Positions 9,204 to 18,115 are shown, numbered from the stretch's first letter. The stretch: DNA of 64,000 bases from Chlamydiota bacterium (GCA_013287645.1 JABDDJ010000001.1:28419-92418); one strand, 5' to 3'. The notes: generated by a model from the letters alone, not told the origin. Numbers and translations: made by a program.

Positions 9204-9755
9204 ATGGGTCTAAAATTAATCAAAACTGCAATTCCTGATGTCGTACTTTTTGAGCATCGAATATTTGGCGACGAGCGGGGATTTTTTTACGAAAGTTTTA
9301 ATGCTAAAGAATTTGAGGAAGCGACGGGAGTTACAGATTCTTTTGTTCAAGACAATCATTCCCGCTCTGCAAAAAATGTTTTGCGCGGTTTGCATTATCA
9401 GGTCGAAAATACCCAAGGTAAATTGGTCCGTGTCACTTTAGGTTCAGTATTCGATGTGGCTGTTGACCTGCGTCCTGGCTCTGCTACCTATGGTCAGTGG
9501 GTTAGCATGATTTTGGATGATAAGTCGCGTCATAGCGCTTGGATTCCTAAGGGATTTGCTCACGGCTTTTTAGTCTTAAGCGATAGGGCGGAATTTCTCT
9601 ATAAAACTACCGACTACTATAATCCTAAGGCAGAGAGGACTCTGCGCTGGGATGATTCTTCGTTAAACATTCCCTGGCCTGTTGAAGGGGCTCCTTCCCT
9701 CTCCGCTAAGGATCAAATTGGTCATTCTTTACAAGAAGTGGAGGCATTTCGGTGA
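9204..9755 (+). CDS. rfbC: dTDP-4-dehydrorhamnose 3,5-epimerase
   Basis: Contains FGDERGFFYESF, RGLHYQ and PKGFAHGF. The track start at 9198 is TTG; ATG 9204 has a ggaagag RBS upstream. Confidence 0.9.
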   Translation: MGLKLIKTAIPDVVLFEHRIFGDERGFFYESFNAKEFEEATGVTDSFVQDNHSRSAKNVLRGLHYQVENTQGKLVRVTLGSVFDVAVDLRPGSATYGQWVSMILDDKSRHSAWIPKGFAHGFLVLSDRAEFLYKTTDYYNPKAERTLRWDDSSLNIPWPVEGAPSLSAKDQIGHSLQEVEAFR

Positions 9756-10639
9756 AACGGATTCTGCTTACAGGAAAGAATGGTCAGGTGGGCTGGGAGT
9801 TGCAGCGGGCTCTTTCTGTACTGGGTGAAGTCATTGCTTTCGATAGTAAAGCGTTGAATCTAGCTGAACCCTCAGCCATCCGTTCTCTAGTACAGGCGAG
9901 TCGTCCACACATTATTGTGAATGCAGCAGCCTATACAGCTGTGGACAAGGCAGAAAGTGAACCTGAAGTTGTAGACGCTGTCAATGGTAAGGGGCCTGAA
10001 ATTTTAGCCGAGGAGGCACGCCGGAGCGGTGCCACATTAGTCCATTTTTCTACTGACTATGTCTTTGATGGAAAAAGCTCTACGCCCTATCTAGAAACCT
10101 CTCCTACTGCGCCTTTAAGTGCCTATGGAAAAAGTAAGTTACATGGCGAGCAAGCTATTATCGATTCGCAATGCAAACACTTGATTTTCCGTACTAGCTG
10201 GGTCTATGCGAATCGGGGCAAAAATTTTATGCTGACTATGCTTAACCTGGCTCGCTCAAAACCGCTACTTTCGATTGTGAATGACCAGCGGGGTGCGCCT
10301 ACCTGGGCGCGATCGATTGCTGAGGGTGCCGCTCAGGTACTATCTCGCACACTCAATAGCCATCAAGAAGAATCTTGGGGAATCTACAATTTAACGTGTT
10401 CAGATCAAACGACCTGGTTTGGATTTGCTAGCGCTATCTTCGAGCTTTACCGTAACTTGGATCCGAATTTTACTATTCCAGAACTGAAAGCGATCACCAC
10501 AAAAGAATATCCTACACCGGCTCAAAGACCACTCTATAGCGTTTTGGATAACCGCAAAGTGCAAAATGCTTTCCATGTGAATCTTCCTCACTGGAAACGT
10601 GCTTTAGAACTCTGTCTACAAGAGAGGTTTACCTCATGA
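9752..10639 (+). CDS. rfbD: dTDP-4-dehydrorhamnose reductase
   Basis: Contains ILLTGKNGQVG (Rossmann), AAAYTAVDKAE and STDYVFDG...YGKSK. GTG start overlaps the rfbC stop. Confidence 0.9.
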   Translation: MKRILLTGKNGQVGWELQRALSVLGEVIAFDSKALNLAEPSAIRSLVQASRPHIIVNAAAYTAVDKAESEPEVVDAVNGKGPEILAEEARRSGATLVHFSTDYVFDGKSSTPYLETSPTAPLSAYGKSKLHGEQAIIDSQCKHLIFRTSWVYANRGKNFMLTMLNLARSKPLLSIVNDQRGAPTWARSIAEGAAQVLSRTLNSHQEESWGIYNLTCSDQTTWFGFASAIFELYRNLDPNFTIPELKAITTKEYPTPAQRPLYSVLDNRKVQNAFHVNLPHWKRALELCLQERFTS

Positions 10640-15947: not shown

Positions 15948-17192
15948 ATGACAAGCCAAATCACTCAAACATCAGAGTCACTAAAAAATAATTCCGATTT
16001 TTTAAATAGACTCACCTGTTTTCAGGCCCTTTTCCGAGGCAGAAAAGTAAGAAAACAGATCGCTATTCCCTCTCAAATTCATCATAATAATGATCTTGCA
16101 ACTTTCATATACAAAGAAGTTAACGCGATCATCCGCAAGAATAACCCATGCTCAGGTAAAAAATTAGTTGGACCAGAAGACTTTAAGATTTGGATAGAAC
16201 GCTCAGACGAAAGAAAAGTTGTAGACGTTTTATATTATGTGACGTGGAAGAATTACCTACTAGGAAAAGGCTGTTACAAAAATATCTTCCAAGCCAAGAC
16301 AATGGCAATTCCTATCCAGATTTTTTATAAAAATCCACAAGAATTGAATCGTCAAAATTTTACTTTAATAAGAGCATCTGAAACAAATAATGAAAATGAC
16401 AACAAACGTATTCGAAAAGGATATGCTTTTCAAAAATACTTTATTGATAAATATCCAGGAATTCATATTGCTGAAGTCCCTGTAGAAGGACCTGATTCTA
16501 CAGATCCAGCCTTTAGCTTACCTGAATGGAAACAGCGACGTTATGTCTGTTTTTGGATCGCAGTAGAGGAACTAAACTTATCTTTAAAAACCTATTTAAA
16601 AGCTCTTGGCGACATATTCGAAGTTCTCGAAATTCTTCATGCGGAGGGAGTTGTTCATCGAGATATCAAATGCCAAAATATTCTATTAAAACCTGAGGAT
16701 GGTAGCGGCTGGCTCAATGACTTCGATGTAACTTCTGAGGTGGGTCATGAATCGTTTCTCACTCTCAATGAGTGTTTGGATCCTCTCGGACAAGAAGATT
16801 GGATAACAAAATCGAGCGACATCTATGGTCTTATGGTTTGCATTCTTGAAGTATTAACGAAATCTCTTCATAGCGTAAAGATAAGTAATATGTGCAGGGA
16901 AGGTCAAACAAGTCCTAACTTATACAATATGTTCCAACAAAAGGCCCTTAAGTATTTTCCAGGTCATAGTACAATCATCACAAAACTTTTAGATTTTGCT
17001 TTTGAAATTTTTACAAAAGCGATTGAACTTGAAGAAGATTGGCAACGTAACACAACAGCTCAGACAATATTCACTAAAGGGACCCTCAAACAAAAAGAAG
17101 ATGCCTGGGAAGTAATTGTTGTAAAAAGTAAAATTTTCCCTTCTATCACTGAGGTTAAAGAACGCTTTGAAAAGATTATACAACAATTATGA
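15948..17192 (+). CDS. Eukaryote-like protein kinase with an N-terminal IQ (calmodulin-binding type) motif
   Basis: Catalytic loop VVHRDIKCQNILL (HRD nt 16656-16664), DFD (16719-16727), a Gly-rich LGKGCYKNIF...AK and subdomain-IX-like SDIYGLMVCILEVLT. The IQ motif FQALFRGRKVRKQI (nt 16020-16061) fits [FILV]Qxxx[RK]Gxxx[RK]xx[FILVWY] exactly. Confidence 0.75.
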   Translation: MTSQITQTSESLKNNSDFLNRLTCFQALFRGRKVRKQIAIPSQIHHNNDLATFIYKEVNAIIRKNNPCSGKKLVGPEDFKIWIERSDERKVVDVLYYVTWKNYLLGKGCYKNIFQAKTMAIPIQIFYKNPQELNRQNFTLIRASETNNENDNKRIRKGYAFQKYFIDKYPGIHIAEVPVEGPDSTDPAFSLPEWKQRRYVCFWIAVEELNLSLKTYLKALGDIFEVLEILHAEGVVHRDIKCQNILLKPEDGSGWLNDFDVTSEVGHESFLTLNECLDPLGQEDWITKSSDIYGLMVCILEVLTKSLHSVKISNMCREGQTSPNLYNMFQQKALKYFPGHSTIITKLLDFAFEIFTKAIELEEDWQRNTTAQTIFTKGTLKQKEDAWEVIVVKSKIFPSITEVKERFEKIIQQL

Positions 17193-18115
17193 TTGATATC
17201 CTACTCGCTACCTACAATGGTGAAAAGTATCTGCCTGAACAGCTGCAATCGATTGAAAGGCAGAGTTATCCTAACTGGAGATTAATAGCTCGTGACGACT
17301 GCTCTAAAGACACGACTTCTCTTATTTTGCAAGATTTCGCTAAACGTCATCCAAACAAAGTTTTACTACTTCCTACGACTCAAAATTTAGGTGTTGTTGG
17401 CAACTTTTCTGCTGCAATGGAAGCCTCTACAGCGCCCTATGCAGCCTTATGCGACCAAGATGACGTTTGGGATTGTGATAAGCTCTCTATTATGCTCACA
17501 GCTATCCAAGAGCTAGAAAAACAGCACTCTGCAGAGACTCCGCTGCTTGTCCACAGCGATTTACGCCTCGTAACTAGTGATCTAAAGCCCATTGCTTCCT
17601 CATTTTGGAGATATACACACCTCTATCCGCAGGAGACAACCACCCTCAATCGGTTATTAGCTCAAAATGTAGTAACTGGATGTGCATTACTCTGCAATCG
17701 TGCTCTGCTGCAATTTGCTACACCATTGCCCCGCGAAACCCTTATGCATGATTGGTGGCTAGCCTTGACAGCGAGTGCCCTAGGAAAGATCGGGGTGATT
17801 GACAGACAAACTTTAAACTACCGGCAGCATGGAAAAAACACTTTGGGAGCAATTAAGTTTTGTTCCCCGACCCATATTCGATTAGCTTTAAAGAGAATTT
17901 TTGATCTTTCCTCTAAGAAAAATTTACAAGCCAAGGTATTTTTGGATCGATTTTCAAAGCAACTTTCTTTAGACTCTCGCGCAACACTGCAGACCTATCT
18001 CGCACTGAAGCAAATGCCTGCTTGGAAAAGCCGATGGGTTGCTTGGAGCAACGGGTTTCATAAACAGGGGTTTTTGCGTCAATTATGCGCCTTTTTTCTC
18101 CTCAAACAGCCGTAA
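17189..18115 (+). CDS. Glycosyltransferase family 2 (rhamnosyltransferase-like)
   Basis: Contains DILLATYNGEKYLPEQLQSIERQSY, ARDDCSKD and CDQDDVW (DxD). ATGA overlap with the kinase stop. Confidence 0.85.
   Translation: MIDILLATYNGEKYLPEQLQSIERQSYPNWRLIARDDCSKDTTSLILQDFAKRHPNKVLLLPTTQNLGVVGNFSAAMEASTAPYAALCDQDDVWDCDKLSIMLTAIQELEKQHSAETPLLVHSDLRLVTSDLKPIASSFWRYTHLYPQETTTLNRLLAQNVVTGCALLCNRALLQFATPLPRETLMHDWWLALTASALGKIGVIDRQTLNYRQHGKNTLGAIKFCSPTHIRLALKRIFDLSSKKNLQAKVFLDRFSKQLSLDSRATLQTYLALKQMPAWKSRWVAWSNGFHKQGFLRQLCAFFLLKQP

Follow-up and report, generated by a model that had tools for sequence, protein, structure and literature searches.

A Wzm/Wzt-type gene block of Parachlamydiales that probably specifies a rhamnose-containing surface glycan, with a kinase gene set between its two glycosyltransferase genes

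Nine genes on one strand of a 64,000-nucleotide stretch of DNA from a Chlamydiota bacterium (GCA_013287645.1 JABDDJ010000001.1:28419-92418; hereafter the window, with positions counted from its first letter) quite probably constitute a surface-glycan module of the Parachlamydiales that depends on an ATP-binding cassette (ABC) transporter, contains rhamnose in its product and was inherited vertically, with a kinase gene as a later insertion. The block occupies 9198-18115 (+) and reads rmlC, rmlD, rmlA, rmlB, wzm, wzt, a GT4-family glycosyltransferase gene, a kinase-like gene and a GT2-family glycosyltransferase gene. Open reading frame (ORF) calling showed that neighbouring genes overlap or sit 4-5 bp apart, and a promoter and terminator scan detected no convincing terminator within the block. 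Run over the region, that scan and a tandem-repeat scan gave nothing informative. An earlier reading of the same sequence (the original prediction) had described a tight same-strand block with these gene identities, and the ORF calls and profile searches agreed with it on both counts. Its start at 9204 falls 6 nt inside the TTG-started rmlC ORF (9198), a difference that is immaterial, and the block itself is on the + strand.

The first four genes encode the complete pathway to deoxythymidine diphosphate (dTDP)-L-rhamnose, and RmlA, RmlB, RmlC and RmlD all scored over their NCBIfam equivalog cut-offs. In gene order, they are rmlC for dTDP-4-dehydrorhamnose 3,5-epimerase (9198..9755, +; TIGR01221, 257.8 bits against a cut-off of 155.75; PF00908, E 2e-69), rmlD for dTDP-4-dehydrorhamnose reductase (9752..10639, +; TIGR01214, 329 bits against 224.05), which overlaps rmlC by 4 bp, rmlA for glucose-1-phosphate thymidylyltransferase (10636..11544, +; TIGR01207, 451.7 bits against 360.65) and rmlB for dTDP-glucose 4,6-dehydratase (11534..12595, +; TIGR01181, 495.4 bits against 365.1).

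These genes are followed by those for an exporter, in which, as in Wzm/Wzt pathways, the permease Wzm and the nucleotide-binding protein Wzt have adjacent genes (PF01061 and PF00005). The gene wzm, for an ABC-2 type permease (PF01061, ABC2_membrane, 56.4 bits), was called at 12540..13400 (+); its true start is probably the ATG at 12582, which gives a protein of 272 aa, the same length as the orthologue in the metagenomic locus L006, which comes from SRR21279715. The gene wzt (13387..14637, +) encodes an ABC ATPase (PF00005, ABC_tran, 75.1 bits) with a C-terminal domain of the Wzt_C type that spans aa ~260-416 (~150 residues) and matches PF14524 over aa 281-370 (32.0 bits against a gathering threshold of 30.4). 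The best PDB matches of this protein were Wzt, TarH and TagH (E 1e-60 to 1e-46), and the solved structure nearest to its nucleotide-binding domain was the WzmWzt O-antigen transporter of Aquifex aeolicus (8dku/6oih, E 4.9e-60). The best NCBIfam matches of the permease were Wzm/RfbD and KpsM, both under their cut-offs; for the exporter as a whole, the Wzm/Wzt (galactan) and TagH models ranked top yet stayed below their equivalog cut-offs.

From its family match, the C-terminal domain of Wzt would be of the carbohydrate-binding type and is a putative sugar binder; PMC9445017 describes the carbohydrate-binding domain of Wzt as recognising the chain terminus. The domain can be aligned along its full length in 16 chlamydial loci. 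In four other chlamydial loci (L021, L023, L025 and L026) Wzt is a short form of 257-271 aa that ends without a C-terminal domain. Because a chlamydial subclade carries Wzt in this short form, terminator-dependent-type and terminator-independent-type exporters both exist within the Parachlamydiales. The Wzt proteins of clostridial loci are also long, but their C-terminal parts could not be aligned with that of the window protein.

Two glycosyltransferases complete the module. The gene at 14630..15943 (+) encodes a GT4-family enzyme of 437 aa (Pfam Glyco_trans_1_4 and Glycos_transf_1), hereafter GT4, whose AF2 (AlphaFold) model, built from a 22-sequence alignment, adopted the GT-B fold with a predicted local distance difference test score (pLDDT) of 90.6; Foldseek matched it to GT4 enzymes such as GlgM, MshA, BshA and WaaG (E 1e-18 to 1e-13), and PimA was a further fold match. 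The last gene of the block, at 17189..18115 (+), encodes a GT2-family enzyme of 308 aa (PF00535, Glycos_transf_2, 79 bits), hereafter GT2, that is 40-53% identical to the GT2 encoded directly 3' of GT4 in chlamydial relatives. One homologue of GT4, P0093 (656 aa), is fused to S-adenosylmethionine-dependent methyltransferase domains, an arrangement that would fit a capping or terminating role in some members of the family.

Judged by its marker genes and protein matches, the window genome was confirmed, at the levels of phylum and order, as one of the Parachlamydiales, the environmental, amoeba-type chlamydiae. The chlamydial markers of the window include three TLC nucleotide transporters, a fused SecDF of 1522 aa and a protein resembling inclusion-membrane (Inc) proteins, and the top named matches of its seryl-tRNA synthetase were metagenome-assembled genomes (MAGs) of Parachlamydiales or Parachlamydiaceae, at 71-75% identity. 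The TLC-family genes lie at 33557-36768 (-) and 61716-63254 (-), two of the three in tandem, as is typical of environmental chlamydiae. The organism does not group with the Chlamydiaceae, either by the nearest named relatives of its seryl-tRNA synthetase or by the relatives of the cluster, which were Parachlamydiaceae, Waddliaceae and Protochlamydia MAGs. Chlamydiaceae make a lipooligosaccharide of 3-deoxy-D-manno-octulosonic acid (Kdo) and lipid A that has no O-chain, chlamydial lipopolysaccharide (LPS) is rough in the textbooks, and chlamydial surface chemistry has been modelled on this family. The contrast drawn with it in the original prediction was misplaced, although the textbook statement itself is correct: since the genome belongs to the Parachlamydiales and not to the Chlamydiaceae, the premise of a rough lipooligosaccharide only is not directly applicable.

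The distribution of the module points to inheritance within the chlamydiae. Homologues of GT4 numbered ~3,900, and a GT4 alignment, run against a single genome for each GTDB species, yielded 208 relatives, the best ~40 of which were mostly Chlamydiota (Parachlamydiaceae, Waddliaceae and Protochlamydia), followed by Actinomycetota, Saccharibacteria/Patescibacteria and Clostridia. All window proteins were compared with 89 fetched loci, and 32 loci of the chlamydial clade, the window included, were counted. In 20 of these 32, wzt adjoins the GT4 gene, and 19 of the 20 have wzm as well; an orthologous GT2 is also present in 17/32, and rmlA/B lie within 10 kb in 10/32. The genes wzm, wzt, GT4 and GT2 are contiguous in many chlamydial MAGs, including those of Parachlamydiaceae and Waddliaceae. 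The full order rmlCDAB-wzm-wzt-GT4-GT2 was found in the metagenomic loci L007 and L008, whose GT4 is 70% identical to that of the window, and L006, with a GT4 that is 78% identical, shows rmlCDAB-wzm-wzt-GT4 on a contig that stops 135 bp past GT4.

In a neighbour-joining tree of GT4, all chlamydial proteins fell into one clade; the window paired with L006, followed by L007 and then by L009, inside a subclade shared with Parachlamydiaceae and Waddliaceae. The GT4 homologue of Protochlamydia naegleriophila (L005) branched in a paralogous lower subclade, and no rml, wzm or wzt gene was found within 10 kb of it. This context and this branching suggest that cultured Protochlamydia may be without the full module.

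The original prediction had also noted that the block is richer in G+C (GC) than the accessory genes and had taken this as compatible with acquisition from a free-living bacterium. The observation holds, with a GC of 0.453 for the cluster against 0.378 for the accessory genes, and the count of 33/60 reported for nt 9781-9840 was exact. The argument built on it fails, because the cluster matches the core genes of the window (0.448) and its GT4 lies deep in the chlamydial clade. In both GC and GC at third codon positions (GC3) the cluster equals core genes such as RadA, PGK, GltX, SecDF and TLC; the higher GC relative to the accessory neighbours thus reflects a likeness to the core genome and not a foreign origin. 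Recent horizontal acquisition could further draw on the occurrence of the combination of GT4, wzm/wzt and rml in Clostridia and in bacteria of the candidate phyla radiation. Set against this, the clade in which GT4 is nested spans several chlamydial families, the gene order is kept in divergent chlamydial MAGs, and RmlA and RmlB are 66-88% identical to chlamydial copies but 50-60% identical to clostridial ones. A recent transfer of the cluster from a free-living bacterium is therefore very improbable.

The kinase gene does not share this history. Located at 15948..17192 (+), it encodes a 414-aa, putative eukaryote-like kinase of the Ser/Thr type with an IQ motif (Pkinase, PF00069, 43.2 bits against 31.7, a match confined to the C-lobe). 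It starts 5 bp after GT4 and overlaps GT2 by ATGA, filling the GT4-GT2 junction precisely, whereas in L007, L008 and L009 GT2 begins 5 bp after GT4 with no kinase between them. The gene was absent from all 89 other fetched loci, and its GC of 0.353 and GC3 of 0.287 are like those of the accessory genes of the window. The original prediction had counted the kinase as part of the block, but it is not conserved there: it occurs at this place in the window alone, is GC-poor and belongs to a family found in non-glycan contexts. By its sequence and position, it looks like a later, lineage-specific insertion into the operon; its family is a divergent one, in which an N-terminal IQ motif precedes a eukaryote-like kinase domain.

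For the kinase, a word-indexed search returned only one distant relative (P0002, 31% identity), in a housekeeping context, and a HMMER scan of 1.84 billion representatives returned 464 relatives, the best with E 3e-21 over aa 79-397; another relative, P0248, adjoins type II secretion genes and not glycan genes. The window protein has the catalytic loop HRDIKCQN (aa 237-244) and DFD (aa 258-260), and the retained HRD, N and DFD suggest a true kinase rather than a glutamylase. Its glycine-rich loop, GKGCYKNIF (aa 106-114), places Lys111 at the position used by WNK kinases, and this lysine is conserved in most family members; the usual lysine of strand beta3 (VAIK) is replaced by Pro (MAIP). The lysine in the glycine-rich loop (GKGCYK) and the missing beta3 lysine together resemble the arrangement in the eukaryotic WNK kinases. 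The best PDB sequence matches were StkP, OSR1, PAK4, PDK1 and WNK (WNK1 and WNK3), and the best fold matches of the structural model were IRAK4 and JAK1. The alignment of closest relatives shows this architecture to be conserved, from the N-terminal IQ-type motif and an LPSQ behind it, through the lysine of the glycine-rich loop, the Pro at beta3 and the catalytic motifs, to a helical C-terminal region.

The IQ core, FQALFRGRKVR, lies at aa 25-35, within a predicted helix (16-32) of the low-confidence model. A strict IQ pattern, [FILV]Qxxx[RK]Gxxx[RK], matched once in 630,855 ORF residues (the window and 90 loci), and this match was in the window kinase. Among the 150 best relatives of the kinase, 20 carry the same pattern, in nearly all cases N-terminal to the kinase domain, and the Pfam IQ model scored 25.1 bits in P0248. 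An IQ-type helix together with a kinase fold is reminiscent of the Legionella effector SidJ (PMC6858067), in which, unlike in the window protein, the IQ motif is C-terminal. By analogy, the most likely role of the kinase is that of an effector directed at the host and binding calmodulin, which would share a transcript with the module without being a glycan enzyme. Its relatives are likewise candidate calmodulin-dependent effector kinases of chlamydiae; a literature search returned no prior description of such a chlamydial family of IQ-motif kinases. A reading as a defence kinase was considered and rejected, as the PADLOC matches to PD-T4-6, MkoA and mad6 (E ~1e-11) are limited to aa ~208-306, the generic catalytic loop, and were treated as non-specific.

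A kinase encoded inside a Wzm/Wzt cluster, with a Wzt that has a carbohydrate-binding-type domain, also recalls WbdD of Escherichia coli O9a, and the kinase might act as a terminator of this kind, phosphorylating the non-reducing end of the chain so that the C-terminal domain of Wzt would read the cap. In favour of this role, the gene sits inside the operon, 5 bp after GT4 and with the ATGA overlap with GT2, and the Wzt_C domain is present yet profile searches found no methyltransferase, and no other obvious terminator was seen, in the cluster. The window kinase weakly matched an LPS kinase model (KdkA, NF002475, E 2.9e-5), its relatives P0244, P0246, P0247 and P0260 matched PF06293, and the kinase domain of WbdD itself has a fold that resembles eukaryotic protein kinases. 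On the other hand, 16 loci of relatives with a homologous long Wzt have no kinase, so that, unlike WbdD, the protein is not conserved together with the C-terminal domain of Wzt. It also differs from WbdD in having no methyltransferase domain, an N-terminal IQ motif found again in other members of its family, relatives outside glycan loci, and an HRDxKxxN loop typical of protein Ser/Thr kinases. Its GC is 0.353 against 0.45 for the operon, protein kinases head its PDB sequence and fold matches, and WbdD was not among its best 60 PDB sequence matches or its top 50 fold matches. For these reasons, we rejected a WbdD-like terminator as the lead explanation. We keep it as a minority reading and an improbable one, because the operon otherwise has no obvious terminator for a Wzt with a C-terminal domain.

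With the kinase set aside as an insertion, the other eight genes suggest the following pathway. RmlA, RmlB, RmlC and RmlD, assigned at the level of equivalog profiles, would convert glucose-1-phosphate and dTTP to dTDP-L-rhamnose. On the cytoplasmic side of the membrane, GT4 and GT2 would then extend a polyprenyl-(pyro)phosphate-linked primer, itself presumably supplied by an initiating transferase encoded elsewhere, into a rhamnose-containing chain. As their family membership suggests, Wzm/Wzt would carry this chain, once complete and still linked to lipid, through the inner membrane, and the C-terminal domain of Wzt would bind the chain or its non-reducing end. An enzyme of the Wzy_C family, also presumably encoded elsewhere in the genome, may finally attach the glycan either to a protein or to lipid A-core, in which case the product would be an O-antigen. 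One of the two transferases, GT4 or GT2, could add a terminal cap.

The last step draws on the relatives. A membrane protein of the Wzy_C (O-antigen-ligase) family is encoded directly beside the module in 12 chlamydial loci, all of which also carry wzt (L012:12863-14122, L029:6480-7739, L040:6717-8009 and nine more). L029, which has Wzy_C next to wzm-wzt-GT4-GT2, belongs to the isolate Parachlamydiaceae bacterium HS-T3. The proteins have 409-463 aa, and most are predicted to span the membrane 8-10 times (range 6-10). Pfam scans covered two of the loci and gave Wzy_C scores of 31.1 and 28.9 bits (cut-off 31.7); the rest are clear BLAST homologues of these two. L014 has a weaker candidate of the same type. 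The original prediction had gone from Wzm/Wzt, transferases and dTDP-rhamnose to an exported glycan, which is a reasonable step, and the Wzy_C gene in the loci of 12 relatives strengthens the inference that the glycan is built on a lipid carrier and exported.

Where the glycan ends up is less clear. The Wzy_C family includes O-oligosaccharyltransferases (a dual-function WaaL is the subject of a preprint), and the acceptor could therefore be lipid A-core or a protein. A specific and tentative proposal is that many environmental chlamydiae make a "smooth" LPS with a rhamnose O-antigen by means of Wzm/Wzt and a WaaL-family enzyme, and that the operon described here has in addition captured a calmodulin-binding, WNK-like effector kinase, so that in the lineage of the window one transcript would carry both surface-glycan genes and a host-directed kinase. 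It is also possible, though we consider it rather unlikely, that the exported glycan is not an LPS O-antigen and is instead attached to protein by O-glycosylation of the PglL/WsaB type (for example, to a surface or inclusion protein rich in Ser, Thr and Pro), attached to peptidoglycan, or lipid-anchored as a capsule-like polymer. Such a product would suit the nearest non-chlamydial relatives of GT4, which are in Saccharibacteria, Actinomycetota and Clostridia, groups without LPS, and in Clostridia GT4 sits with rmlCDAB-wzm-wzt. Ser/Thr/Pro-rich membrane proteins are encoded directly upstream of rmlC in the window and in L006, and MBOAT and acyltransferase genes occur near the module in several relatives. 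However, chlamydiae are didermic and have lipid A-Kdo, the standard acceptor of Wzm/Wzt products in Gram-negative bacteria, and the loci examined showed neither an LCP-family gene nor one specific to oligosaccharyltransferases; WaaL and PglL are indistinguishable at the present level of analysis.

The genes near the module vary among relatives. In several of them, additional GT2, GT4 and GT6 transferases, MBOAT proteins and acyltransferases are encoded near the module, which is consistent with a variable, decorated surface glycan. L023, L025, L026, L029 and L036 have an MBOAT O-acyltransferase, a conserved 379-aa partner and an Acyl_transf_3 protein (in L025, at 15327-16781, 16799-17938 and 17928-19073), and the MBOAT and acyltransferase genes hint at O-acylation of an extracytoplasmic glycan. 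In a Parachlamydiales MAG, the extended glycan cluster includes a gene for a GT6-family transferase of the histo-blood-group type (L040:15980-16711, -; PF03414, E 5.5e-43).

As a type, the pathway is well known: it resembles a classical ABC-transporter-dependent O-antigen or rhamnan pathway and is nothing mechanistically new. As in the O-antigen pathways of E. coli O8/O9a, Klebsiella and Aquifex aeolicus, there is a Wzm ABC-2 permease and a Wzt that joins a nucleotide-binding domain to a Wzt_C-type domain; likewise, a cytoplasmic GT4 and GT2 and the nucleotide-sugar genes share one operon, and 12 chlamydial relatives have a Wzy_C (WaaL-family) protein beside the module. Unlike in those pathways, no initiator of the WecA type, ligase or terminator (WbdD or the Kdo-capping WbbB) was identified in the window, the C-terminal domain of Wzt could not be aligned by sequence to that of the Aquifex protein, and the organism is a chlamydia, obligately intracellular, with no O-chain described for it in the searchable literature.

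In gene content, the module is as close to the rhamnan clusters of Gram-positive bacteria as to the O8/O9a loci of enterobacteria. The Rgp/Gac clusters of Streptococcus and the S-layer glycan (slg) cluster of Geobacillus comprise rmlABCD, one GT4, one or more GT2 and an exporter of the Wzm/Wzt type, which is the same set as in the window. The likeness extends to the closest non-chlamydial GT4 relatives, found in Clostridia, Actinomycetota and Saccharibacteria and linked in Clostridia to rmlCDAB-wzm-wzt. It does not extend to an orthologue of the GT2 of the chlamydial module, which the clostridial loci do not have, to similarity with rhamnosyltransferases such as WsaF, which PDB searches did not detect, or to attachment, as no counterpart was identified for the transfer to peptidoglycan by LCP proteins or to the S-layer by WsaB.

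Several observations weigh against a vertically inherited rhamnose-glycan module with an inserted kinase. The glycan is predicted from genes, in the window organism as well as in its relatives. Matches of GT4 and GT2 in NCBIfam, PDB sequence, profile-PDB and Foldseek searches were all generic and assign neither enzyme a donor sugar; neither WsaF nor any other rhamnosyltransferase came up, and the incorporation of rhamnose is therefore argued from gene linkage. Pfam scans of the window, which covered ORFs of at least 150 aa, found no initiating transferase of the WecA, WbaP or MraY type (PF00953, PF02397), and none was seen in the scanned flanking ORFs of relatives either; such enzymes are commonly encoded apart from the Wzm/Wzt cluster. 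Neither those scans nor tblastn with chlamydial Wzy_C proteins revealed a Wzy_C homologue in the 64-kb window, the matches in relatives are at or slightly under the Pfam cut-off, and the family also holds O-oligosaccharyltransferases and polymerases. No chain-terminating enzyme was identified in the cluster despite the C-terminal domain of Wzt. As for the kinase, the contig of L006, the closest relative, ends 135 bp after GT4, too short to show the state of the junction, and these 135 bp match neither the kinase nor the N-terminus of GT2. The Pfam IQ match in the window kinase is weak (9 bits, below the cut-off), and the model of the protein has a pLDDT of 62 overall, with a low-confidence N-lobe and values of 80-95 in the C-lobe.

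The original prediction had allowed that the cluster might be widespread and already described in close relatives, which would remove its novelty. Widespread it is, whereas no prior description was found in the searchable literature: searches directed at Wzm/Wzt and at WaaL or O-antigen ligase returned no paper with a chlamydial Wzm/Wzt pathway, O-antigen ligase or O-chain in its title or abstract. What is on record is a KEGG-level mention of dTDP-rhamnose biosynthesis in Parachlamydiales and a survey that placed the rml pathway in <20% of Chlamydiae genomes. The module is widespread in Parachlamydiales and biochemically unexplored in the phylum. From the conserved Wzm/Wzt-rhamnose module and, in a dozen loci, the linked ligase-family gene, one would expect the amoeba-associated majority of the phylum to carry a polymeric glycan at the surface, and cultured relatives allow a direct test. 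If present, the glycan would matter for recognition and uptake by amoebal hosts and for survival in the extracellular stage, and equally for serological cross-reactivity and innate immune sensing of emerging chlamydia-like pathogens.

Other features were observed around the block. Upstream of rmlC, at 7562-9127 (+), a gene of odd codon composition (GC at second codon positions 0.546, GC3 0.174) encodes a 521-aa Inc-like protein, rich in Ser, Pro and Thr and with a bilobed hydrophobic segment at its centre. A 441-aa ORF in the same place in L006, immediately 5' of rmlC, shows weak similarity to it (25%, E 3e-7). The cluster is followed directly, at 18210-19682 (+), by a gene for an AAA ATPase (PF01637) with a full-length match to PDC-S27, a candidate defence system in PADLOC (E 3.2e-166). 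With a low GC of 0.314 and GC3 of 0.19, this gene of an obligate intracellular bacterium is probably of the defence type and a recent acquisition. Next comes a giant ORF of 3659 aa (19928-30907, +), whose only Pfam match is DUF3638 (aa 2552-2751); it is preceded by a sigma-70-like promoter match at 19885-19913 (11/12 positions), the best in the scanned region. Farther along, an AdoCbl-II (cobalamin) riboswitch at 58208-58302 (+; 47.3 bits against a gathering threshold of 36.5) stands immediately upstream of a DUF6580 gene (58324-58926), which suggests that DUF6580 is B12-related and perhaps involved in transport.

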